Assembly: GCA_021827485.1 (NCBI GenBank) | Contig: JAKAVM010000101.1 | Location: 2,766 to 66,765, forward strand | DNA length: 64,000 nt | Direction of reading: 5' to 3' | DNA from: Actinomycetes bacterium | Lineage (GTDB): Bacteria > Actinomycetota > Acidimicrobiia > Acidimicrobiales > JAKAVM01 | Shown here: positions 26,739-49,371 of the stretch, piece after piece | How positions within the stretch are numbered: position 1 is the stretch's first letter | Layout of the letters: each line of letters begins with the position of its first letter | Translations under genes and position numbers: made by a program | Notes under the pieces: generated by a model | What the model saw: the letters and a program-made list of their open reading frames with translations, nothing else | What the model was told of the DNA's origin: nothing | The model's database searches: none

Positions 26739-28952
<2,214 letters not shown>

Positions 28953-36996: not shown

Positions 36997-38676
36997 ATGG
37001 AAGCTCCCTTGGAGAACGATATTCAAATCAGCGTCGAGCCTGAGCTAGTTCCAGCACGAATGGTGAATGAGTTCGCGTACTGTCCGCGTTTGTTTTATCT
37101 CGAATGGATTGATTCACAATTTGTTGATAACGATTATACCGCTGATGGCAGCTATAAGCATCGGGCAATGGACGTGGAAACTGGTGCTGCTCCTTTACCT
37201 GAGGATGGTAAATTGAAGGAGGCACGGTCACTTCTTTTATCTTCGACGAAGTTGGGCCTGGTTGCCAGAATCGATTTAGTTGAAGGAAACGGTGATGAAG
37301 TTCACCCAGTTGATCTGAAAAGGGGACGACCTGCTCCAACGCCAGAAAGAGCGTGGGAACCAGACCGAGTACAGGTGTGTATTGCAGGCCTATTACTTCG
37401 AGAAGCTGGCTACAACTGCAATTCGGGTTATCTCTCGTATGCCGCTACACGCGAACGGGTCGAAGTTATTTTTGAAGAAAAATTGATTACCAGGACGCTT
37501 GAATTGTTAGGAGATTTGCGGCAAGTTGCATTAAACGCCCAAGCCCCACCTCCACTTATCGCAAGCCCTAAGTGCCCTCGTTGTTCAATGGTAGGGATTT
37601 GCCTGCCTGATGAGAAAAATGCTCTATCTGAAAGAAGTCAGCGTCCTATTCGTAAGCTGTTGCCCAGCGATCCAGCATCAGCTCCGCTTTACGTAGTTCA
37701 ACAAGGGGCAAAGATTGGCTTGAGTTCAGGCCGGGTCACGGTTGAATGCGAAGGCAAGGAGACTGTTTCTGTCCGAGCAATTGACGTTTCTCAAATATGT
37801 ATTTACGGCAATATTCAGATTAGTTCGCAAGCAATCCGTGAGATGATGGCGAGGCAAGTGCCGATATGTTGGTTTAGCTATGGAGGTTGGTTCGCCGGTA
37901 TAGCCGAGGGTCTACCATCAAAAAATATTGAGCTTCGGGCTCGACAAGTCGCACGGGCACATACAGGTTCTTCTGAAATTGCTGGTTCTATCGTAAGAGG
38001 AAAGATTAGAAATTGTAGAACTCTTTTGAGACGTAATTCCAGAACCGATGTCGCTAACACAATTGAATCATTGGCCAGGATCGAAGCATCAATTGCCAAC
38101 GACTGTCCGATAGAATCCTTACTTGGTTACGAAGGTGCGGCAGCTCGTCTTTACTTCGAGTCGTTTCCTGCCATGATACGTCCTGATCTAGGATTACCAG
38201 GGGGGCCTTTTTGTTTTGAGTCACGAAATCGGCGGCCTCCCTTAGACGCTGTCAACTGTCTTCTCTCCTACGTGTACGCGCTTTTAGTCAAGGAACTGAC
38301 TGTCACAAGCTTGGCGGTAGGATTCGATCCGTACCTTGGTTTTTATCATCGTCCGCGATTTGGCCGTCCAGCTCTTGCCCTTGATCTTGCAGAGGAGTTT
38401 CGGCCGTTGGTGGGCGATTCGGTAGTTATTCAACTTATCAATAACGGCGAGGTTCATCCTTCTCACTTTATTGTGCGGGCAGGGGGAGTAGCTCTCACTC
38501 CTGCTGGTCGTAGAGCAGTACTTAGTGCTTTTGAAAGAAGACTTAAAAAGGAAATTCGGCATCCTATCTTCGGTTATAGTGTGACATATCGGAGGCTTTT
38601 TGAAGTTCAAGCACGGTTGCTGGGGGCCACGTTACTTGGCGAGATACCAGCCTATACAGCGTTCACAACCCGTTAG
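36997..38676 (+). CDS. cas1: Cas4-Cas1 fusion (adaptation nuclease/integrase)
   Basis: The N-terminal Cas4/RecB-type domain has C29 in FAYCPRLFYLEW, VDLKRG and CPRCSMVGIC, giving a 4-Cys cluster. The Cas1 part has YEGAAARLYF, NCLLSYVYALL and GFYHRPRFGRPALALDLAEEFRP. Confidence 0.9.
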   Translation: MEAPLENDIQISVEPELVPARMVNEFAYCPRLFYLEWIDSQFVDNDYTADGSYKHRAMDVETGAAPLPEDGKLKEARSLLLSSTKLGLVARIDLVEGNGDEVHPVDLKRGRPAPTPERAWEPDRVQVCIAGLLLREAGYNCNSGYLSYAATRERVEVIFEEKLITRTLELLGDLRQVALNAQAPPPLIASPKCPRCSMVGICLPDEKNALSERSQRPIRKLLPSDPASAPLYVVQQGAKIGLSSGRVTVECEGKETVSVRAIDVSQICIYGNIQISSQAIREMMARQVPICWFSYGGWFAGIAEGLPSKNIELRARQVARAHTGSSEIAGSIVRGKIRNCRTLLRRNSRTDVANTIESLARIEASIANDCPIESLLGYEGAAARLYFESFPAMIRPDLGLPGGPFCFESRNRRPPLDAVNCLLSYVYALLVKELTVTSLAVGFDPYLGFYHRPRFGRPALALDLAEEFRPLVGDSVVIQLINNGEVHPSHFIVRAGGVALTPAGRRAVLSAFERRLKKEIRHPIFGYSVTYRRLFEVQARLLGATLLGEIPAYTAFTTR

Positions 38677-38689
38677 GAGTTGAAGACCA

Positions 38690-38989
38690 ATGGCTAACCG
38701 ACGCCGTCATCTTATCGCGTATGACATACATGATCCCAAGAGACTTAGGCAAGTTCACAAAGTATTGGTTTCCTATGGATACTCTGTCCAGTACTCGGTC
38801 TTTGTATGCGACCTAACAACTCAGGAAAAGATCGCCTTCCGATGGGATATAGGGGAAGTAATAAACCATCGCGAAGACAGCGTTGTTATCGTCGATTTAG
38901 GGGAAGCGGGGGAAGCGTCCAGTGATCGATTTGAATTCCTCGGGGTATCGCTCGAGTTACCTGAGGATGGAGGGGTAACGATAATATAA
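38690..38989 (+). CDS. cas2: Cas2
   Basis: 99 aa with HLIAYDI (catalytic Asp context) and VQYSVFVCDL, 13 bp downstream of cas1. Confidence 0.85.
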   Translation: MANRRRHLIAYDIHDPKRLRQVHKVLVSYGYSVQYSVFVCDLTTQEKIAFRWDIGEVINHREDSVVIVDLGEAGEASSDRFEFLGVSLELPEDGGVTII

Positions 38990-39050: not shown

Positions 39051-39437
39051 CTAATGGCTTGATAGGTTTATAACAAAGATAAAAACGACTCTATGAGGAT
39101 CGCCATTTGAAGAAGTTTGATAGGAATCACTGTATTGGTAGTCGATTCGCCCTGCGCCACTGATCTCGTAATGAATTGTCCTTGAAAACCCGTCTCGTTT
39201 AGGTTTGCCAGCTTTCCCGCGAAGTATATTTGCCTTGCCAACTAAAGGGATCTTACCAGGCGATTGAGCAACGTGATCCCAAAATCGCTGGGCACTTTGC
39301 AACCCAATCCGTTGAACAAGCTTGTCCCAAAGGGATAAATATTTTTGATGAACCAACACTCGGTATTGTGGAGCCAGATCTGGTTTGCCGCCGGGGCGTC
39401 GAGCAGGCACAAACGGCTGATAGGAACCACAAGGCAT
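39051..39437 (-). CDS. Putative RelE/ParE-superfamily toxin
   Basis: The C-terminal half, ILRGKAGKPKRDGFSRTIHYEISGAGRIDYQY...VVFIFVI, resembles the RelE/ParE beta-sheet core. It lies 25 bp downstream of an antitoxin-like gene. Confidence 0.4.
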   Translation of the reverse strand: MPCGSYQPFVPARRPGGKPDLAPQYRVLVHQKYLSLWDKLVQRIGLQSAQRFWDHVAQSPGKIPLVGKANILRGKAGKPKRDGFSRTIHYEISGAGRIDYQYSDSYQTSSNGDPHRVVFIFVINLSSH

Positions 39438-39462: not shown

Positions 39463-39987
39463 TTATGCGGGTCGGGATACTTCGATAAAGTTATCTGGAT
39501 CGAAAGTCTCGCAAAGTGTCGCACTGTCGTTTGGATCACTAAGTACATTTGCTGTGGTTTCCCAGTCGGAAACCAGTTGCCGTAAGCAATCCAAATGGTT
39601 TGAATCGACGGCCTCAAGCAAAGATTGACGTAGTTCTTCAAGAAAGGTGTCAAGATCTTCGTCGTCAAGATACTGGAGCCAGGAAGCACCTGGGAAATCT
39701 TCACCTGTTCGGAGGGCTGCAGGTTTGCGACTTGCTTTAGTGGCTTGGAGATGAGCACGAACCCAATAGAGGATTTCATCCGAGCGATCAAGCTGGTCTT
39801 CTGGCACCATAAGAATACCGCTTTGCCCCTCAATAGATAGTCGAACTGGCTGGTGGCGAGCAAGATCGACCATACCACGAACATCGGATTCGAGTTCTTC
39901 AAGGGTATGGGCCGAAGGTTCAATGATTGCCATACTCTTATTATAGAAGTTTGTAAAGGAGTTTTCACTAAGAATCATCAGAGCCAA
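39463..39987 (-). CDS. Putative Phd/YefM-type antitoxin with a long C-terminal tail
   Basis: MAIIEPSAHTLEELESDVRGMVDLARHQPVRLSIEGQSGILMVPEDQ looks like a Phd/YefM N-domain. The real start is probably the internal ATG at 39933. Confidence 0.45.
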   Translation of the reverse strand: MALMILSENSFTNFYNKSMAIIEPSAHTLEELESDVRGMVDLARHQPVRLSIEGQSGILMVPEDQLDRSDEILYWVRAHLQATKASRKPAALRTGEDFPGASWLQYLDDEDLDTFLEELRQSLLEAVDSNHLDCLRQLVSDWETTANVLSDPNDSATLCETFDPDNFIEVSRPA

Positions 39988-40196: not shown

Positions 40197-42687
40197 GCGG
40201 ACATTTCTTTTATCCATCATCGATACCGCGACTCAGCCGGACTTACCGGACCAGAATACGATGGATCAGCGGACATTTCTTTTATCCATCATCGATACCG
40301 CGACCAGCTCAAGCCGAGGCTAAATTATCCCAAGGTATTAGAGTGCGGACATTTCTTTTATCCATCATCGATACCGCGACATGAGTACCGTAATACACGT
40401 TTGTGGCGATGGATACAGCGGACATTTCTTTTATCCATCATCGATACCGCGACGACTATTTCGGGGTTAACACTAACAATATATTCTGGCGGACATTTCT
40501 TTTATCCATCATCGATACCGCGACTATTTCTGCCTCTCACCGGCCGCACGTTATGAGGGCGCGGACATTTCTTTTATCCATCATCGATACCGCGACGGTT
40601 GAGGCCCGGGACGTTTACGGCTGGTCCGTTGCGGCGGACATTTCTTTTATCCATCATCGATACCGCGACCCGGCTCAGTATAGACACTATAAGGAATTCA
40701 TAGATGCGGACATTTCTTTTATCCATCATCGATACCGCGACAGTACTGTTTGCATAGGTGCCTCCTACTTTCCGTGTGCGGACATTTCTTTTATCCATCA
40801 TCGATACCGCGACGCGTTGGTGAAGTTTGCATCCGTGAAGTCTCCTCCGGTGCGGACATTTCTTTTATCCATCATCGATACCGCGACCCTTGCGCATCTA
40901 ATGGACTTGTAATATCCACATTGGCGGACATTTCTTTTATCCATCATCGATACCGCGACTCGAGTCCACCCAGTGCCAGAATTCTTCTGGTGAGAGCGGA
41001 CATTTCTTTTATCCATCATCGATACCGCGACGTGGCTGGCCTGAAGAGCAGGCAAGAGGAGAAACAGCGGACATTTCTTTTATCCATCATCGATACCGCG
41101 ACCCGGGGAATCTATACTAACAAGGTAGATCTGGATCTAGGCGGACATTTCTTTTATCCATCATCGATACCGCGACGCGATCTGCCGCGTACACTTGCCC
41201 GCCATGCTCATGCGGCGGACATTTCTTTTATCCATCATCGATACCGCGACCCGATCTTCGAGCTGCCACTCTTGAAGGTGCCAATCTTGCGGACATTTCT
41301 TTTATCCATCATCGATACCGCGACAAGACAATCAAGGAGGTAGTAATTTGAGCAATATTGCGGACATTTCTTTTATCCATCATCGATACCGCGACTAAAG
41401 GGACTTGGCAGTGCAGCCGATAAGATCGCTGGCGGACATTTCTTTTATCCATCATCGATACCGCGACGAGTAAAAGAACTGATCGTAGGTTTGCAGAAGT
41501 TTTGGCGGACATTTCTTTTATCCATCATCGATACCGCGACTTGGCTGTAGAGCTTAGATCGGCTAGTGAGGTGTCGCGGACATTTCTTTTATCCATCATC
41601 GATACCGCGACTGGACGACTTATATCTGCTGGGAGAGGGTAATTGGAGCGGACATTTCTTTTATCCATCATCGATACCGCGACTAGATGTTGCCCTATGT
41701 GTCGGTTGACGACGTAATAGCGGACATTTCTTTTATCCATCATCGATACCGCGACTTGAAAATGCTCAAGATCTCCTGCAAGTATTTCAAGCGCGGACAT
41801 TTCTTTTATCTATCATCGATACCGCGACGAGTTGACGGATGTATACATCGAGATACGCGATTACGCGGACATTTCTTTTATCCATCATCGATACCGCGAC
41901 CTCGGCTGCCCGTTCGACGGCTGTGCCTGTCGCTGGCGGACATTTCTTTTATCCATCATCGATACCGCGACTCATCCCAGTTCGGTTTTTGTACTAATGG
42001 GAGAGTGGCGGACATTTCTTTTATCCATCATCGATACCGCGACACGGCCCTACCCACGGTTGGGCTAAATCTTGTTCCGGCGGACATTTCTTTTATCCAT
42101 CATCGATACCGCGACGAAGACATGGGTGACGTTTGCGAGGAGTGTTTTTGGGCGGACATTTCTTTTATCCATCATCGATACCGCGACTTGAGGAAGGGGC
42201 ATCCCAGGATGCCGCGACGATGGCGGACATTTCTTTTATCCATCATCGATACCGCGACGCTAGTAGCGGTAAGGATCGAGCGAGCGATAAAAGAAGCGGA
42301 CATTTCTTTTATCCATCATCGATACCGCGACCTAACAGCGCAACTTAGTTATGGCATACCTGAACATGCGGACATTTCTTTTATCCATCATCGATACCGC
42401 GACCTCCAACTTGAGTGCCGCCTGCTAGAAACGCTCTTGCGGACATTTCTTTTATCCATCATCGATACCGCGACGGCACATGTCGTATATGGTAGAGCGC
42501 TTAGGGATGAGCGGACATTTCTTTTATCCATCATCGATACCGCGACATGTGGCAGGATTGCTAATCGAACTTGGTGCGCTTGCGGACATTTCTTTTATCC
42601 ATCATCGATACCGCGACCCGCCGATCATGCGTGAGGGCAGCATCTTGGCGTGCGGACATTTCTTTTATCCATCATCGATACCGCGAC
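40197..42687 (+). CRISPR. CRISPR array with 35 repeats of 36 nt and 34 unique spacers of 34-40 nt
   Basis: The repeat is GCGGACATTTCTTTTATCCATCATCGATACCGCGAC, first at 40197 and last at 42652-42687. The only variant is C-to-T at 41811 in repeat 23. Strand is inferred from the GCGAC 3' end, which resembles the ...GCAC end of Cas12b repeats. Confidence 0.98.
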
Positions 42688-43015
42688 ACCTATCGAAATT
42701 AGGTACACTTTACAAGGGATAACCGGAACGAGTTCGAGCGGTATCCTTCTGCTGATTCTACCAGATTTGATTACAACGCATTCTGGCGATCGGATCTGTA
42801 ATCTATCAGGAGATTCCCCCGTGCGAGCGCTAACCGAGATCTGACAGTCAAATCAGCCCTCGCAAAGAGCGTGACTCTACAAGAAATGCACTCGGATGCC
42901 CTACTTTTGCAGGGTCGCCTTTCACGGCACCGCTACTCCGAGCCTCGCTGCCACCTAAGTGCTAGCTAGCCCTAGTCTAACACGATGCAGTGCCGTGGTC
43001 AACAACTCCGGGCAT

Positions 43016-46000
43016 TTACTTCGGGAGTCGCGAGCGAAGTGCCTTCTGAGCCTTGGCCTGCCTGTTCTTGGGTTTCGACGAGGGAGCGGACCCTTCGGAA
43101 GTCTTTTGGGCGTAAGGCGTCAGAGCTCTTAGAGCAATATTGGCCGCGGCGTTCTGGTCGGCATCTTCCAATCGCCACTCAGAGGGATGCGCATCGATCG
43201 GGAATGCCAGGTGGGTTCCTCCACGGTCTGGTACCGGTACGTTGCAATCATTGCCCGGAGTCGGTGGTTTCCCGCTATTAATCGCGCTGTCAACATCCAA
43301 GACTGCTTGGTGCAGCGGCCAGAGTTCCCCGCCATCCTTCTTAGCCTTGGTCTCAGCTCGCCGGGCAGTCTCGATCTTCTTTGACCATTGCTCAGCAAAT
43401 TTATTCTTGCCGGTCAGATCTGCCGCAGGCGTCAGATGGACTCGCACTCCGCGCTCTTTGAGCGCGAACGATTCCTGGCTCGTCCCGAACGGATTAACGG
43501 ATTTGAGCGCAAGTCCGTGCAACTCACATAGCTCGTTCAAATACTTTCCGGTATCTGCCTTGCCCCACAAGCTTACTTTGCGGTTCTCTACATGGCCTCG
43601 CTTCTCATCAGTTCGATACTTACTCAAGTCCTCAAAGGCGATACCGTGACACCGGTTCACGAGAGCAGTTCGGACAATCGCCGACGCGATCTGCTTGGAG
43701 CAATCGTCTCGTATTGCTTTTCTGAGTTCGAGTATTTCCGCTCCGAAGCCATCAGGGAGTTCCGTTCCCCGCGGCCCGTCAGGAGTCGGGCGGGCAAACA
43801 CGCGAGCGCTATTGCGATAGAGGTCGTAAAGTAGATTGAGGCGGTCGAGCGGAGAAAGCCACCGTACGCCCCGGAACTGGACCGGACCATCGAAGCCGAG
43901 TCTCCGTGCTGGGCTCTCGGCGAGAAGCCCGCCGATCACCATTGTCCGGACCCCTCGCCATACACTCCGGAGAATCTCATCCTCTTCGGTCCATAAGGTT
44001 GCCGCCTTATCCGCTAGACCTGTCCGGTTCTTCTCCATTGCCGCCAACCACATGCGAATATCCGTGACGTTGCCATTAGCGTCTACCGCGACGCCCGAGC
44101 ACGACTCGTTCCACAGACCGCTGACCCGGTGAGTCTGGTTTTCCTCGGCAATTCTCTTCCATCGGTCATACAATCGCTTGATCGGCAAGGCGTCATCATG
44201 AGATCCAAGCGACGCGGCAACTCGTGCCAGGAATCCATGCAGTAACATCCAACGCTTGAAATTCTTGAGCACTTGGTGCGCCAGCTCTTTTTGCGTTGTC
44301 TGAGGCCGATAGTCTTCACCCACACACCCTGCGACCCTCTGAGCAAGCAGTTTCTCCGATAACGACGGATGATATGAACGCTGGCCGACCACCACGTTCC
44401 CCGAAGAACTCCCGTCTCTCCGTGCCCACAAATCTGTCCCCTCGATGCGCCTGTACACACATGATGACCCGTCCGGACCACCAATTTCGACCGAAATGGT
44501 TCCTGCGTCGGGTTGTGGCTGGCTGTCCTTTTTGCATACAGCAACTACTTCGTTCTCGTCGCAGACGTGGAGTACCGCATAGCTAGCTTCTGCCCGGATA
44601 CCCAAGTCTATTCCCAATACCCGCCAACCGGGCGCAAGATCATCTTCCTTCGGCCACCTACCCTTGAGGTTTCGTACCGGTATCAACCCCTTCTTCTCCC
44701 GCCAGGTGATGGCAGGTCCGGCAGGTTTCAGTCTCAACGAAAGGGAGACGTGCCACCTCGGCAGCGAGTCCCTCCCCGGATCGCTTCCGCGTTCGCAATA
44801 GAGCTGGGCACTTGTCCAATCTTGCTTTGCAGCGACAGAGGCGACATCCGAACCGCCAACCGCCAACCGCCCCAGTCGATCACGTCTTGCCGCGCGCGGA
44901 CGACCAGGGTAGTCCCCGCGGTCCTTTCGCATGCGGGCCGACACCATGCGACCTGTGACTCTGCGAAGGGACGCACCATCCCACACCTTGTTAAAGGTCA
45001 CGCGCCCAGGGACACCTTGTACATTCCATTTCGCTGGCCACACATTCGTTCCGAACCTGACCCACAGCGGGTGCTGAGCGGGATCGGGGTGGCAGATGGC
45101 AGGAAGCTTGAGCCGTTGCTGGCGTTCCTCCTTATCCACCAGCTCCGCGTAATTACCGAGCAATTTGCCAAGCCCATCGAGTCCGCCCAGATCGTCCACA
45201 TGACCGGCGATCCACTTGAAAAGCGCATGGTCCCCGAATGCACGACCTGTAATGGCTGAGTCCGCTTGAAGTTCACTTACCGCCACCAATCTGTCTTCTG
45301 CCGTAGCGAGACCTTTCCATTCCGATATGACGTCGGCACTGTTCCTCGTCGCCTTACGCCGGATCCGGTAAGGACCGCCACTTTCCTCCGCACGTTCACG
45401 TTCGTACTCCTCCAAAGTCTTGAGTGGACCATCTGCTAATTCATCACGCCCCACTTTGATGTCGTCGTCGAGTTTCAGTAGTTCGTCTACTCGCTTGCGA
45501 ATATTGGTCGTTTGTGGGATGACAGCGGCGGCGGCGCCCACGACAATTTCACACTGCCCGTCGACTCCGATGTCACGCCAATTGCCGATGAAATTGGCCT
45601 TTTCGATCCGGAGGCGTATTGCCTCCGACCAGGGACGGGTGCCCTTCTTCCCGATCTTCAGTCTGGTTCCCTCGACATCACCCAAAAGCTTGCTGAGCTT
45701 GTCTGCGTCGTCATCGGAGATCGACGCTGAGGGATCCAACTTACAGCTCTCCGCCATTCGCTCCAAACGCAGCGTCAACTTATCTTTCCGACCCGGCTTC
45801 TTCCTGGATTCGAGAACGATCTTGATGGGATCGCCCCCGGATGAAACAGGTTCCAGTGCACCAGCCATTGAAGCAAACAGCCCCGCAATGTTGGCTCCGG
45901 CTTTGATAACGACCGATGTTAGCGCATCTTCCTTCTTCGCGACGCCTGCCCAGTCGGTTCCTTTGCCGGCGCCATACCGGTTTGACACCCAATCTCGTGC

Positions 46001-46618
46001 CGGAGCGTTGAGGCTGTTCTGGACGAGGGACGCATCAGTTTCGTCGTCTTCACTTTCCCCGGGTGCAAAGAGAATGCTGATAATGCTGGATGCTAGCTGT
46101 GTGCCATGCGGCTCGACCGCCTTCAACATGCCGCCCAGCATGTCTTCAAGGGGTTCAAGGGAATCGGTTCCGATCTTGCATTCCTGAGCGAAGTCAAGCC
46201 ACCCCTGTCTCCTGTCGATGATGGCAGTTCCCTCCCCCAGAGCACATTCGACCGCTGTCTTGGCGTCGACCACCCACTCATCGATTTCCGGATTAGACAA
46301 TCCGCAACCCGACAGATGTTCCCGAAAACGATTCTGCCGCTCATCCGGGTCGATGAGATACGGGCACGCTGTGACCTTTTCTCCCCGTTCGGGAGACAAC
46401 CAGTACGCGCAAAGTAGTGACCGGGCAAGCGCCCGCCGATCATCTCCAATATTTGCAAGGTCGCCCGGCGATACTGAGGCTCGGATCGTCAGAAACGCAT
46501 CAAGGAAGATTCCCTTGGCCCTGTTCACACCCACATGGTGGTTCCAGAGGGCTCGGGCATCCTCGTCACTCGTCCATAGTCGGGCAGTATAAGTACGGAT
46601 CGAATTCTTCTCCTTCAT
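43016..46618 (-). CDS. cas12b: Cas12b-family (type V-B-like) effector, 1200 aa
   Basis: RuvC-I is VLGIDLGIR (D671, nt 44606-44608). RuvC-II is IAFEDLS (E996, nt 43631-43633). RuvC-III is EDADQNAAANIALR (D1154, nt 43157-43159). Further blocks resemble AacCas12b as I recall it: ALWNHHVGVN, FGDHALFKWIA and HPDPAQHPLWVRF. Confidence 0.85.
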   Translation of the reverse strand: MKEKNSIRTYTARLWTSDEDARALWNHHVGVNRAKGIFLDAFLTIRASVSPGDLANIGDDRRALARSLLCAYWLSPERGEKVTACPYLIDPDERQNRFREHLSGCGLSNPEIDEWVVDAKTAVECALGEGTAIIDRRQGWLDFAQECKIGTDSLEPLEDMLGGMLKAVEPHGTQLASSIISILFAPGESEDDETDASLVQNSLNAPARDWVSNRYGAGKGTDWAGVAKKEDALTSVVIKAGANIAGLFASMAGALEPVSSGGDPIKIVLESRKKPGRKDKLTLRLERMAESCKLDPSASISDDDADKLSKLLGDVEGTRLKIGKKGTRPWSEAIRLRIEKANFIGNWRDIGVDGQCEIVVGAAAAVIPQTTNIRKRVDELLKLDDDIKVGRDELADGPLKTLEEYERERAEESGGPYRIRRKATRNSADVISEWKGLATAEDRLVAVSELQADSAITGRAFGDHALFKWIAGHVDDLGGLDGLGKLLGNYAELVDKEERQQRLKLPAICHPDPAQHPLWVRFGTNVWPAKWNVQGVPGRVTFNKVWDGASLRRVTGRMVSARMRKDRGDYPGRPRAARRDRLGRLAVGGSDVASVAAKQDWTSAQLYCERGSDPGRDSLPRWHVSLSLRLKPAGPAITWREKKGLIPVRNLKGRWPKEDDLAPGWRVLGIDLGIRAEASYAVLHVCDENEVVAVCKKDSQPQPDAGTISVEIGGPDGSSCVYRRIEGTDLWARRDGSSSGNVVVGQRSYHPSLSEKLLAQRVAGCVGEDYRPQTTQKELAHQVLKNFKRWMLLHGFLARVAASLGSHDDALPIKRLYDRWKRIAEENQTHRVSGLWNESCSGVAVDANGNVTDIRMWLAAMEKNRTGLADKAATLWTEEDEILRSVWRGVRTMVIGGLLAESPARRLGFDGPVQFRGVRWLSPLDRLNLLYDLYRNSARVFARPTPDGPRGTELPDGFGAEILELRKAIRDDCSKQIASAIVRTALVNRCHGIAFEDLSKYRTDEKRGHVENRKVSLWGKADTGKYLNELCELHGLALKSVNPFGTSQESFALKERGVRVHLTPAADLTGKNKFAEQWSKKIETARRAETKAKKDGGELWPLHQAVLDVDSAINSGKPPTPGNDCNVPVPDRGGTHLAFPIDAHPSEWRLEDADQNAAANIALRALTPYAQKTSEGSAPSSKPKNRQAKAQKALRSRLPK

Positions 46619-46803: not shown

Positions 46804-47934
46804 TCATGACCGCAAAATCCATTGTTTGAAAAAAGGGTCGTCGACACTCCACTCGCCCGCTCTTTCGACGATTAGGTCTGCCGATTCGAGAGCGGTCAAC
46901 GCCTTTTTTACTGACGATGCATTGGCTACAGCTGCTCGCGATACAAATGCCGAGCTAAATGGATTACGTTCCGCGCCTTGTGCCAATGCAAGCAACACTT
47001 TTCGCTGATTATTTGTCAGGCGGCTGAATACGCTAGCGTAGTTATTCGATTGATGGGAGATTGCATTTTCCATACCACTGAGAACTGTATCGGTTCCAAT
47101 TGTATGATCCCCTAATGCCCACGATTCATAGGCCAAGCGCTGAATGTCATTCGGCACGGGGTTGCTGAGTGAGAGTATAAGCCTTGCTGCCGCTTCGCTA
47201 ATAGGTTTTTCGGAACTTTCAGCTCTCGCTCGTAAGTACTCAATCATTGTAGTTTCTGGTAGTGGTTCAAGAAACATCGTTTCGGTCATTCCGTATAGTG
47301 GTGAGCTATGAGTGAGGAGCAAGTTTTTCATCATGTGACGGTTCGACCCTGCTATCGCAAGAGAAACCAATGGATAAGTATCGGACATCGACTTGAAAAA
47401 GTTTGCCATATTTACTCCGATAGAAGTTATCTCTTGGAATTCATCGAGAATTAATACAGCTGGCCTATCGTTAGCTATCCGATTGAGAAGTGAATATACC
47501 TCTTCTATCGAACGAAGATAGTCTAGATTAGAGAGATGTGGGCTAAAGCTAAAGGTGGGACGATTGTCGAGACCTAAGGAGATTGATGGGGTAATTCGGA
47601 ATCGACGCAAGAAATCGGATATCCCATCTCGGCTGCGTCTCCAGCCACCCGGAACTCGGTAAGCACTGGTGACTAGTGCGCTGGAAAAGTCAGCCAAGCT
47701 AGGTGTCTTGAGAACTGACACCGAAACGACTGCTCCAGAGCGGGGGCGTGCTTGAATTCTCCCAGCTGCCGCCTCAAGCAGCGATGTCTTGCCATAGCGT
47801 CGTGGCGATATGAGAGAGATATTGATCGAATCGTTCAATCGCTTGGTTAGTGTTGAGAGTTCTTCCTTGCGTCCAGCAAAATGTGGTCCAGAAACTGGGG
47901 ATCCATACTGATAGGGATTGCCGCTGCGGTACAT
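46804..47934 (-). CDS. AAA-type ATPase (Arch_ATPase/DUF234-like), function unknown
   Basis: Walker A SPRRYGKTSL and Walker B LILDEFQE, with a C-terminal winged-helix-like tail. Confidence 0.65.
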   Translation of the reverse strand: MYRSGNPYQYGSPVSGPHFAGRKEELSTLTKRLNDSINISLISPRRYGKTSLLEAAAGRIQARPRSGAVVSVSVLKTPSLADFSSALVTSAYRVPGGWRRSRDGISDFLRRFRITPSISLGLDNRPTFSFSPHLSNLDYLRSIEEVYSLLNRIANDRPAVLILDEFQEITSIGVNMANFFKSMSDTYPLVSLAIAGSNRHMMKNLLLTHSSPLYGMTETMFLEPLPETTMIEYLRARAESSEKPISEAAARLILSLSNPVPNDIQRLAYESWALGDHTIGTDTVLSGMENAISHQSNNYASVFSRLTNNQRKVLLALAQGAERNPFSSAFVSRAAVANASSVKKALTALESADLIVERAGEWSVDDPFFKQWILRS

Positions 47935-48186: not shown

Positions 48187-49371
48187 ATGATTATTCGAGA
48201 AATAACCCAGGAACTGAGAGAATCAGCAGCCGAATTTCCTGCAGTCACTATTCTTGGGCCTCGCCAGTCAGGTAAGACAACACTTGCAAGATATGCATTC
48301 CCGAATTACCGATATATTTCCTTGGAGGATCCTGATACCAACCTCAGGGCCAATGATGACCCTCGAGGACTGCTCTCCGAACTAGGTGACGGTGGCATTA
48401 TCGATGAGATCCAAAGAGTTCCCGATATCGCTTCATATCTTCAAGGGCTCATCGATTCAAAGCGAGGCAACGGTCGATATATCCTTACGGGATCTAACCA
48501 GCCGATTTTAAGAGACACCGTTTCACAATCTCTAGCGGGGCGGACATCTATCTTGGAATTGATGCCGTATTCCTTCCAAGAAATTAATCAATACGAGTCA
48601 ATCCAAAATGCTTTCGAGCTGATTATCAAAGGTTCATTCCCGAGGGTATACGAAGAAAGAGTGAGGCCAGATAGGTTTTATAATTCATACGTACAAACCT
48701 ACATTGAGCGAGATGTTCGTTTGATGATCAATGTCAGAAACACTCTTCAGTTCCAAAGGTTCGTCACTTTGCTTGCCGCTAGAGTTGGTCAGCTGCTGAA
48801 CTTTGAGTCGATTTCCAACGATATAGGAATTTCTGCAACTGCTCTTAGGAACTGGTTTTCTGTTCTCAAAGCAACCTATGTGGTCTACGAACTCCGCCCA
48901 TGGCATGCCAATATACGAAAAAGGCTTATTAAATCATCGAAGGTTTACTTTACCGACGTAGGATTAGCAGCTTTCTTGTTGGGGATTCACACATCTGATC
49001 AATTGAGAACTCATCCACTGCGGGGGAGCCTATATGAAAACCTCATCCTCACAGAGCTTCTCAAAGGAGCATACAATAAAGGGGCCAGGCCGGACCTCTA
49101 TTTTTTTCGAGACTCCGGTGGAAATGAGATTGATCTGGTTGCCCAAATCGCAGGCAAATGGATTCCAATTGAGGTTAAGTCCTCTGCCACGTTTTCGAAG
49201 GACTTTGTTCGGACAATCAATATGTTCCAAGGTCTCGGAATCGGAGAGGTCGAAAATGGCATAGTTTTCTATAATGGTGAGGCCAATATGAATTACAACG
49301 GTATTTCAATCTTGAATCCTCTCCATATAGGTACTCGAACGCTTTGGGACGTAATTCAAAGCCCAGGTTAA
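48187..49371 (+). CDS. AAA ATPase with DUF4143-like C-terminal domain, function unknown
   Basis: Walker A GPRQSGKTTL, IIDEIQ, and the C-terminal YFFRDSGGNEIDLV nuclease-fold-like segment typical of this family. Confidence 0.7.
   Translation: MIIREITQELRESAAEFPAVTILGPRQSGKTTLARYAFPNYRYISLEDPDTNLRANDDPRGLLSELGDGGIIDEIQRVPDIASYLQGLIDSKRGNGRYILTGSNQPILRDTVSQSLAGRTSILELMPYSFQEINQYESIQNAFELIIKGSFPRVYEERVRPDRFYNSYVQTYIERDVRLMINVRNTLQFQRFVTLLAARVGQLLNFESISNDIGISATALRNWFSVLKATYVVYELRPWHANIRKRLIKSSKVYFTDVGLAAFLLGIHTSDQLRTHPLRGSLYENLILTELLKGAYNKGARPDLYFFRDSGGNEIDLVAQIAGKWIPIEVKSSATFSKDFVRTINMFQGLGIGEVENGIVFYNGEANMNYNGISILNPLHIGTRTLWDVIQSPG

Follow-up and report, generated by a model that had tools for sequence, protein, structure and literature searches.

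The canonical gene order of type V-B CRISPR-Cas systems is cas12b, cas4/1, cas2, array. We describe here a candidate type V-B locus in a 64,000-nucleotide stretch of contig JAKAVM010000101.1 from an Actinomycetes bacterium (GCA_021827485.1; this whole stretch is called the window below), in which a long open reading frame (ORF) encodes a Cas12b-like effector beside a CRISPR array, and we compare it with the systems that lie closest to it. By sequence and by predicted fold alike, the best match is ChCas12b (PDB 9KLN-9KLQ; PMC12204704). Loci of the ChCas12b type share with the window the succession of cas12b, trans-activating CRISPR RNA (tracrRNA), a leader with CGCTCGCA-type boxes and a co-directional array, and the ChCas12b tracrRNA has the same module order and a 3-bp stem 3 with a 6-nt loop. 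Identity to ChCas12b, however, is 20-21% over the structural alignment, and about 27-39% over HMMER-matched stretches for the ChCas12b-like representatives listed. ChCas12b has 1496 amino acids (aa) against 1200 for the window protein, which is thus ~300 shorter and falls in a separate neighbour-joining clade, and the window repeat ends in GUCCGC and is matched by an anti-repeat 2 of GCGG, whereas the corresponding ChCas12b elements are GACAC and GUGUC. The ChCas12b-type tracrRNA carries both GUGUC and UUGGCAC, and its covariance model misses the window candidate.

AacCas12b and BthCas12b (PDB 5U30, 5WTI) resemble the window protein in their domain plan and single RuvC site, and their systems also have a dual-RNA guide (predicted here) and a Cas4-Cas1 fusion with Cas2. 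Sequence similarity to them is nevertheless very low. The only close relative is the Cas12b of an Acidimicrobiales metagenome-assembled genome (MAG), with 53% identity over its full length. Its locus, L001, shares with the window the tracrRNA core, the two ends of the repeat (GTCGC...ATGTCCGC), the synteny of cas4/1, cas2 and two small ORFs, and a cas12b that is richer than cas4/1 in GC at third codon positions (GC3). It differs in that its unit of effector, tracrRNA and array is flipped with respect to the adaptation block, in the interior of the repeat, where anti-repeat 1 differs at the matching positions, and in one small ORF that has stop codons.

We judge the window locus very likely to be a complete type V-B CRISPR-Cas system, comprising effector, tracrRNA gene, array and adaptation module (Table 1). 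Reading along the minus strand, cas12b is followed by the tracrRNA gene, ~50 nt past the stop codon, and then by the leader, the array and the two small ORFs, and beyond these lie cas2 and cas4-cas1 on the plus strand, pointing toward the array. The array, the Cas4-Cas1 fusion and Cas2 adjoin the effector, as expected of type V-B. Its mechanism would be ordinary for type V-B and does not change the understanding of such systems. The locus is of interest as an apparently intact member of a compact Cas12b clade (about 1.1-1.3 thousand aa) that stands beside the large ChCas12b-type proteins.

A compact Cas12b with an intact RuvC site

The original prediction, made from the sequence without database searches, took the ORF at 43016-46618 for a Cas12b effector with an intact RuvC triad, and NCBIfam, PADLOC, PDB sequence matches, Foldseek and alignment all support that identification. 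The frame lies on the minus strand, starts with ATG and runs for the expected 1200 aa, and the peptide blocks ALWNHHVGVN, FGDHALFKWIA and HPLWVRF that had suggested the family are all in its translation, the last of them identical in BthCas12b (5wti). The NCBIfam Cas12b equivalog NF033949, whose cut-off is 150 bits, is matched at 210.6, the Pfam C2c1_RuvC-like model is barely passed (27.7 against a threshold of 27), and the top PADLOC match is Cas12b with 208 bits spanning residues 8-1189, Cas12i following with 40 bits. Sequence comparison with PDB entries ranks ChCas12b from Candidatus Hydrogenedentes first (9kln, E 1.9e-34), with BthCas12b far behind at 8.5e-7 and AacCas12b absent from the matches at E <= 0.01. 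An AlphaFold2 model of moderate quality (mean predicted local distance difference test score, pLDDT, 74.9, with residues 523-617 poorly predicted) is predicted to adopt the bilobed Cas12b fold. Foldseek searches with this model place ChCas12b first (E 4e-41, template-modelling score TM 0.64, TMq), followed by AacCas12b (6e-19), Cas12i2 (8e-19) and BthCas12b (1.4e-18).

The proposed catalytic residues D671, E996 and D1154 lie in the contexts LGIDLG, IAFEDL and DADQNAAANI. In an alignment of 10 sequences, the window protein and nine relatives, all three are invariant and the contexts generalize to LGxDLGxR, IxxEDL and DADxNAAANI; the residues also align to the RuvC segments of ChCas12b. The protein has a single split RuvC, and a Pfam scan of it matched no second nuclease domain such as HNH. 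The public gene call for the same gene (P0001, 1172 aa) begins at V29 and so drops 28 N-terminal residues (window 46535-46618). Because the omitted stretch includes R8, Y10, H27 and H28, which are conserved among relatives, we regard the 1200-aa ORF as the better call.

Relatives of this protein are few. A search of 5.8 billion proteins returned two clusters only, the window protein itself and P0002 at 53% identity, and a profile search of the same set found these two proteins and no further ones. P0002 is encoded on the 7.9-kb contig DAIDHF010000085 of MAG 'clean4' (GCA_027452005.1), which is labelled Acidimicrobiales (L001/L002). For the actinobacterial host that the original prediction had proposed from housekeeping genes, this label is the one direct line of support in our comparisons. 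A metagenome scan for close relatives gave nothing exceeding 30% identity, and an exhaustive HMMER search over 1.84 billion cluster representatives gave 294 clusters at E <= 0.001, the nearest outside the protein's own cluster being 36% identical. Among the 150 nearest cluster representatives there is no close BthCas12b relative, the best being 28% and 46% identical to two Bth segments. In a simple neighbour-joining tree of 132 near-full-length representatives, built without an Aac/Bth outgroup, the window protein and P0002 fall in an 11-member compact clade of 1069-1282 aa, separate from the ChCas12b-like proteins of ~1350-1500 aa. A large Cas12b clade and the general variation in Cas12b size have been described (PMC10691335). 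We rejected membership of the window protein in the large ChCas12b-like clade on its length of 1200 aa, on a repeat end of GTCCGC in place of GACAC, and on the failure of the covariance model to match at the tracrRNA candidate.

The suggestion that this might be a distinct branch, far from the Cas12b proteins of Alicyclobacillus and Bacillus, has thus stood up, and the branch is sparsely populated. Judged by its sequence, the window protein is a divergent new Cas12b that belongs to a rare compact side-branch of the known type V-B. We found no report of an experimentally characterised member of the compact clade.

A co-directional array and a candidate tracrRNA gene

The 36-nt repeat array noted earlier is present as 35 copies at 40197-42687, separated by spacers of 34-40 nt and all identical except for one copy with a single change. 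It is the longest array seen in the compact Cas12b clade here. On the cas12b strand the repeat reads GTCGCGG...ATGTCCGC, and the array lies downstream of cas12b and co-directional with it, beginning 328 nt past the stop codon. To set this arrangement in context we fetched ~100 related loci, each set with cas12b on the plus strand, of which 46 include an array as well as the whole 3' end of cas12b. Every one of these 46 arrays lies downstream of cas12b and runs in its direction, and in 44 loci the repeat on the cas12b strand ends in GACAC. The array starts 316-803 nt past the stop codon in 20 of these loci and 2.3-3.9 kb past it in the other 26, the longer distance being consistent with cas4/1 and cas2 in between. 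The single-guide RNA used for cryo-EM of ChCas12b has a repeat-derived handle ...CAACGGACAC with the GACAC end, followed by the guide (PMC12204704). The repeat orientation is therefore anchored by experiment, since the GACAC end of the family is the handle end of this validated guide RNA. On the cas12b strand the window repeat starts GTCGCGGTA, like the repeats of L035 and L042 (GTCGCGGT...). In three compact-clade loci (L103, L105 and L107), too, the array runs the same way as cas12b and lies 270-311 nt past the stop codon; their repeats open with GTCGC or GTGAC and close with GACGC, GCCAC or GCCGC.

When the gap between cas12b and the array is aligned with the corresponding gap of L001, a strongly conserved non-coding block emerges, with 29 identical bases at 42950-42922, although the two Cas12b proteins share just 53% identity. 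A promoter-like site, matched by consensus only, ends at 42974, 4 nt before this non-coding conservation begins. RNAalifold on the window and L001 predicts three stems: stem 1 is short and has one compensatory change, stem 2 pairs GCUCGGA with UCCGAG(U/C), and stem 3 has 3 bp and a 6-nt loop. Immediately 3' of stem 2 stands anti-repeat 1, GCAUUUCUU, which pairs with repeat positions 24-32 (AAGAAAUGU), and inside the stem-2 loop anti-repeat 2, GCGG, can pair with the last four bases of the repeat, CCGC. The order of stem 2 5' arm, anti-repeat 2, stem 3, stem 2 3' arm and anti-repeat 1 is that of the ChCas12b guide RNA. We take this block as a candidate tracrRNA whose anti-repeat, as judged from the sequence, is directed to the spacer-proximal (3') part of the repeat, as expected for type V-B.

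The relation of the anti-repeats to the repeat carries most of the weight. In L001 anti-repeat 1 is GCAUCCCUU and the repeat GGGGGAUGU, and the helix is kept through two U-A to C-G and two U-A to U-G changes; RNAcofold recovers the pairing of anti-repeat 1 with the repeat in both the window and L001, whereas the opposite repeat orientation gives weaker and different pairings. In L103, L105 and L107 anti-repeat 1 is CCACACUCU, GACGCCUC and CCAUCGUCG, respectively, matching repeat positions 24-31/32. Across the window, L001 and these three loci it begins 81-128 nt past the stop codon. The window, L103, L105 and L107 each have, at the same place, a Watson-Crick complement of 8 nt or more to repeat positions 24-32; shuffled intergenic regions yield such a match within repeat positions 22-33 with a probability of 0.015-0.08 per locus. 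Anti-repeat 2 likewise tracks the end of the repeat (GCGG with CCGC, GUGGC with GCCAC, GCGU with ACGC, and GUGUC with GACAC in ChCas12b), so that repeat and anti-repeats vary in concert in five loci and, by eye, in a sixth, L112, which fits the same anti-repeat pattern (CACCACGAC). That the cas12b strand is the transcribed one follows from the G-U pairs, the spacer-adjacent pairing, the promoter-like site and the family-wide orientation.

We relied on position-restricted Watson-Crick matches and on consistency across loci because two more general approaches did not discriminate: an anti-repeat scan of the intergenic region in both orientations, and a longest-helix statistic with G-U pairs allowed, which was no better than shuffles in any locus. 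The latter result is one of several that weigh against reading the locus as a complete system with a tracrRNA gene of its own. The anti-repeat helices are short, at 8-9 bp. A covariance model built from 35 ChCas12b-type tracrRNAs, in which three helices co-vary strongly (97.5% of cells paired, with 0 of 500 shuffles reaching the observed value), misses the candidates of both the window and L001, its best window matches having E >= 0.8 and lying elsewhere; it is thus the architecture, and not a score, that speaks for homology to the mainstream tracrRNA. We infer the ends and the expression of the tracrRNA from its sequence. Searches of phage and plasmid records with the whole array, and of IMG/VR with the three leader-proximal spacers, returned no protospacer, and hence neither a protospacer-adjacent motif (PAM) nor an independent check of orientation; when the spacers were compared with the window and with every locus fetched, the only matches, of 13-16 nt, were at chance level. 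Placement of the branch comes from a simple neighbour-joining tree without Aac/Bth outgroups. The join between effector side and adaptation side across the array is, moreover, seen in the window only, as the public contig that carries this cas12b (GCA_027390445.1, DAHYFS010000012.1, 94 kb, L102) stops within the array at ~41875, after 12 repeats; the window must accordingly stem from another or a longer assembly. Rfam has no match in 42600-43100 at E <= 1, and its only match in the whole window is one tRNA.

The leader between the tracrRNA candidate and the array contains boxes that are conserved with L001 and built around (G)CGCTCG(C/A)A, box 1 forming a GCGAG...CTCGC inverted pair around ~30 nt. 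Similar boxes occur in each related locus inspected (L001, L103-L112 and the ChCas12b-like L015, L042 and L060), those of the distant ChCas12b-like leaders reading GCGAGYGYGA.GGTGGTG...ACGCTCGCAG, and they might be a signal for integration or transcription. On the plus strand the 8-mer GCGGTATC (42735-42742), which overlaps box 2, is an exact 8-nt complement to repeat positions 4-11; since the other loci lack it, it is probably due to chance.

If the locus operates through the known Cas12b pathway, by which we gauge its expression, processing, RNA ends, PAM and cleavage, the array would be transcribed from the cas12b-proximal leader and the tracrRNA would pair with repeat positions 24-36, anti-repeat 1 with positions 24-32 and anti-repeat 2 with the final CCGC. 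The 5' handle of the CRISPR RNA (crRNA) would be expected to end ...AAAUGUCCGC, followed by the spacer. Cas12b would then bind the duplex of tracrRNA and repeat, and its single RuvC site (D671, E996, D1154) would cut spacer-matching double-stranded DNA beside a PAM, while Cas4/Cas1 and Cas2 would insert new spacers at the leader end. For type V-B in general, the cut in double-stranded DNA is staggered and the PAM is 5' and T-rich. The predicted tracrRNA and crRNA handle are defined well enough for the design of a single-guide RNA.

Table 1. Features of the type V-B locus in the window. Positions are those of the window; features on the minus strand that are given from high to low are read in the direction of that strand.
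Feature	Position	Strand	Basis
cas12b coding sequence, 1200 aa, ATG start, RuvC D671/E996/D1154	43016..46618	minus	ORF and family profiles
Promoter-like site for candidate tracrRNA: TTGACC, 17-nt spacer, TG-extended TAGACT	42974..43002	minus	consensus scan
Candidate tracrRNA, both ends approximate	42870..42967	minus	conservation with L001, folding, repeat-matched anti-repeats
tracrRNA stem 2	42943-42937 paired with 42896-42890	minus	
tracrRNA anti-repeat 2 (GCGG)	42933-42930	minus	
tracrRNA stem 3	42928-42917	minus	
tracrRNA extra hairpin, window-specific	42914-42899	minus	
tracrRNA anti-repeat 1 (GCATTTCTT)	42889-42881	minus	
CRISPR leader, ~180 nt, two conserved boxes	42688..42869	minus	conservation with L001
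Leader box 1 (TGCGAG...GCGCTCGCA)	42864-42822	minus	
Leader box 2 (ACCGCTCGAAC)	42742-42732	minus	
CRISPR array, 35 repeats and 34 spacers, functional repeat GTCGCGGTATCGATGATGGATAAAAGAAATGTCCGC	40197..42687	minus	orientation by family comparison and anti-repeat position
Small conserved ORF, antitoxin-like by eye	39463..39987	minus	weak Pfam DUF6247 match
Small conserved ORF, 128 aa, toxin-like by eye	39051..39437	minus	64% aa identity to syntenic L001 sequence
cas2	38690..38989	plus	Pfam CRISPR_Cas2, 67.2 bits
cas4-cas1 fusion	36997..38676	plus	NCBIfam cas4g_cas1g, 728 bits (cut-off 560)

Composition and history of the effector unit

From GC counts on sample lines, the original prediction had proposed a compositional step at the boundaries of cas12b and, from it, a separate acquisition of the effector module. 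The step is confirmed by windowed GC, which rises sharply at ~42800 and falls at ~46600; GC is 0.571 in cas12b and 0.487 in the rest of the window. The tracrRNA (0.566) belongs to the high-GC segment, whereas the leader (0.477) and the repeat (0.472) fall outside it. GC3 is 0.611 in cas12b against 0.388 in cas4/1 and 0.47 in cas2, and the other window ORFs sampled lie at 0.38-0.49, with the exception of a katG-like gene and one wrong-frame ORF. In codon usage cas12b has the largest distance from the pooled host genes of any of 21 genes, despite being the longest. Such a difference is unusual for the family: GC of cas12b minus GC of its flank is -0.011 +/- 0.038 over 86 other loci and +0.085 here, and GC3 of cas12b minus GC3 of cas1 is -0.041 +/- 0.079, with a maximum of 0.165, over 68 other loci and +0.225 here. 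A GC-richer donor is plausible because the other compact-clade cas12b genes sit in contig flanks of 62-71% GC, with matching GC3 of 0.63-0.88.

The block of cas4/1, cas2 and the two small minus-strand ORFs is syntenic with L001 at 72% nucleotide identity (85, 83, 64 and 61% aa identity), and relative to this block the unit of cas12b, tracrRNA and array is inverted when the two loci are compared. What holds of the earlier proposal is that cas12b is foreign in composition beside cas4/1, cas2 and the host genes, which favours a separate, later arrival of the effector without proving it. On balance we lean slightly toward the view that the effector-tracrRNA unit joined the lineage more recently than the adaptation genes, in one event before the split of the two MAGs or in two. 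The cas12b-tracrRNA unit would then have entered a lineage of ~48% GC after the adaptation genes, from a GC-richer compact-clade carrier.

If instead all parts of the V-B locus were inherited together, which we consider possible but unlikely, then the GC of cas12b would reflect constraints specific to the gene, such as amino-acid content, expression or mRNA structure, and the orientation relative to L001 would be the result of a local inversion. The adaptation genes fit such an account, as the window Cas4/Cas1 shows its greatest similarity to Cas4/Cas1 proteins from its own Cas12b clade: identity is 45% to the protein beside the compact-clade cas12b in L104 and roughly 29-40% to those of ChCas12b-like loci in the matches over full length. 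L001 shows a like GC3 excess (0.548 against 0.405), and the event behind that excess may be old and shared with it; GC1 and GC2 of cas12b are also just slightly over those of the host genes. The identity values, too, are less telling than they seem. We had considered the contrast of 85% for Cas4/Cas1 with 53% for Cas12b as proof of separate histories and dropped it, since the adjacent small ORFs, at 61-64%, are about as diverged as Cas12b, and the 85% of Cas1 may simply reflect slower evolution. Inheritance as one unit is harder to reconcile with an excess that resides in GC3 and not in GC1 or GC2, with the 68 other loci, in which cas12b is not GC3-richer than cas1, with the high GC of a tracrRNA that is non-coding, and with a GC step that coincides with the boundaries of the unit.

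More speculatively, and with a good deal of doubt, cas12b and its tracrRNA, perhaps together with the array, could form a self-contained cassette from GC-rich compact-clade carriers, exchanged or re-inserted in either orientation beside a resident block of cas4/1, cas2 and toxin-antitoxin-like genes, with CGCTCGCA-type leader boxes marking the junction. If so, that junction would enable an incoming effector cassette to cooperate with the adaptation module already in place. The GC3 mismatch and the inversion relative to the sister locus bear in any case on modular exchange within class 2 loci.

Elsewhere in the window, a catalase-peroxidase-like gene at 26739-28952 on the plus strand (Pfam peroxidase, 236 bits) has a GC3 of 0.606, like that of cas12b and well above its neighbours, and it may be a second foreign gene.

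Alternative readings and neighbouring genes

The original prediction also described cas12b as oddly placed, on the far side of the array and convergent with it, and read the repeat as ending in GCGAC. The latter is the reverse complement of the functional repeat, as comparative evidence puts both crRNA and tracrRNA on the cas12b strand, and the apparent oddity arises because the repeat was read on the wrong strand. The order cas12b, tracrRNA, leader, array, all co-directional, is the commonest compact layout in the related loci (the 20 of 46 mentioned above). Only the adaptation genes face the opposite way, an arrangement that L042 has as well. The locus is thus a clear example of how a wrong-strand reading of the repeat creates a seemingly odd architecture.

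The repeats of Alicyclobacillus and Bacillus end in GGCAC. A plus-strand array convergent with cas12b, with any tracrRNA elsewhere, could appeal to the loose likeness of GCGAC to that end, to the position of cas4/1 and cas2 on the plus strand upstream of the array, and to the fact that Watson-Crick complementarity by itself cannot separate the two strands. We nevertheless find this layout very improbable in view of the 46 of 46 related arrays that are co-directional with cas12b. A plus-strand reading would set the anti-repeat against repeat positions 5-13, at a distance from the spacer that does not suit the build of Cas12b guide RNAs (PMC12204704), and the G-U pairs of the L001 anti-repeat and of stem 2 exist on the cas12b strand only. 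When all flanks were scanned with RNAduplex for anti-repeats to the plus-strand repeat, no clear candidate emerged and the best matches lay inside ORFs; the promoter-like site is on the minus strand.

Assignment to type V-I (Cas12i) was rejected, since the Cas12i profiles score 40 bits over RuvC-II only against 208 for Cas12b, and a tracrRNA candidate and cas1, cas2 and cas4 are present. That the ORF might encode a TnpB/IS605-type transposon nuclease, an effector of another Cas12 subtype or a decayed, non-functional effector is an option to which we attach almost no weight: it can cite weak TnpB-family matches across the RuvC-II region (NF040570, 36 bits, residues 965-1050 only) and Cas12i2 among the structural matches (E 8e-19), but the TnpB score is far under its cut-off of 100 while Cas12b passes its own with profiles that span residues 8-1189, the frame is open over 1200 aa where ~400 aa would be expected of TnpB, the triad is invariant, and the 35-repeat array, tracrRNA candidate and adaptation module are all present. 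There is no transposase among the neighbouring genes looked up or the ORFs scanned in Pfam.

On the adaptation side, the fused cas4-cas1 that had been read from the sequence is real and has cas2 alongside; the window Cas4/Cas1 is 85% and Cas2 83% identical to those of L001. The match of the fusion to cas4g_cas1g raised the idea of a foreign type I-G adaptation module, which we discarded because the Cas4/Cas1 beside the compact-clade cas12b in L104 scores 706 bits with the same model. The two small ORFs, which separate cas2 from the trailer end of the array, have counterparts at the same place in L001 (64% aa identity for the one at 39051-39437 and 61% for that at 39463-39987), and by eye they look like a toxin-antitoxin pair, the latter having a Phd/YefM-like N-terminus. 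Neither has an NCBIfam or PADLOC match; the former is without any family match, and the latter has a weak match to DUF6247 only. The L001 counterpart of the 39051-39437 ORF carries two stop codons.

On its other side cas12b apparently lies in a defence island, which takes in the genes at 46804-47934 (minus strand) and 48187-49371 (plus strand) and extends further along the public contig (L102 635-2971). Neighbours of cas12b there include a STAND-like NTPase as well as an AAA_14/DUF4143 ATPase with a 328-bit match to the PADLOC candidate system PDC-S01, and a few kb beyond these cas12b-side neighbours are a SacI-like restriction enzyme and a DNA methylase.

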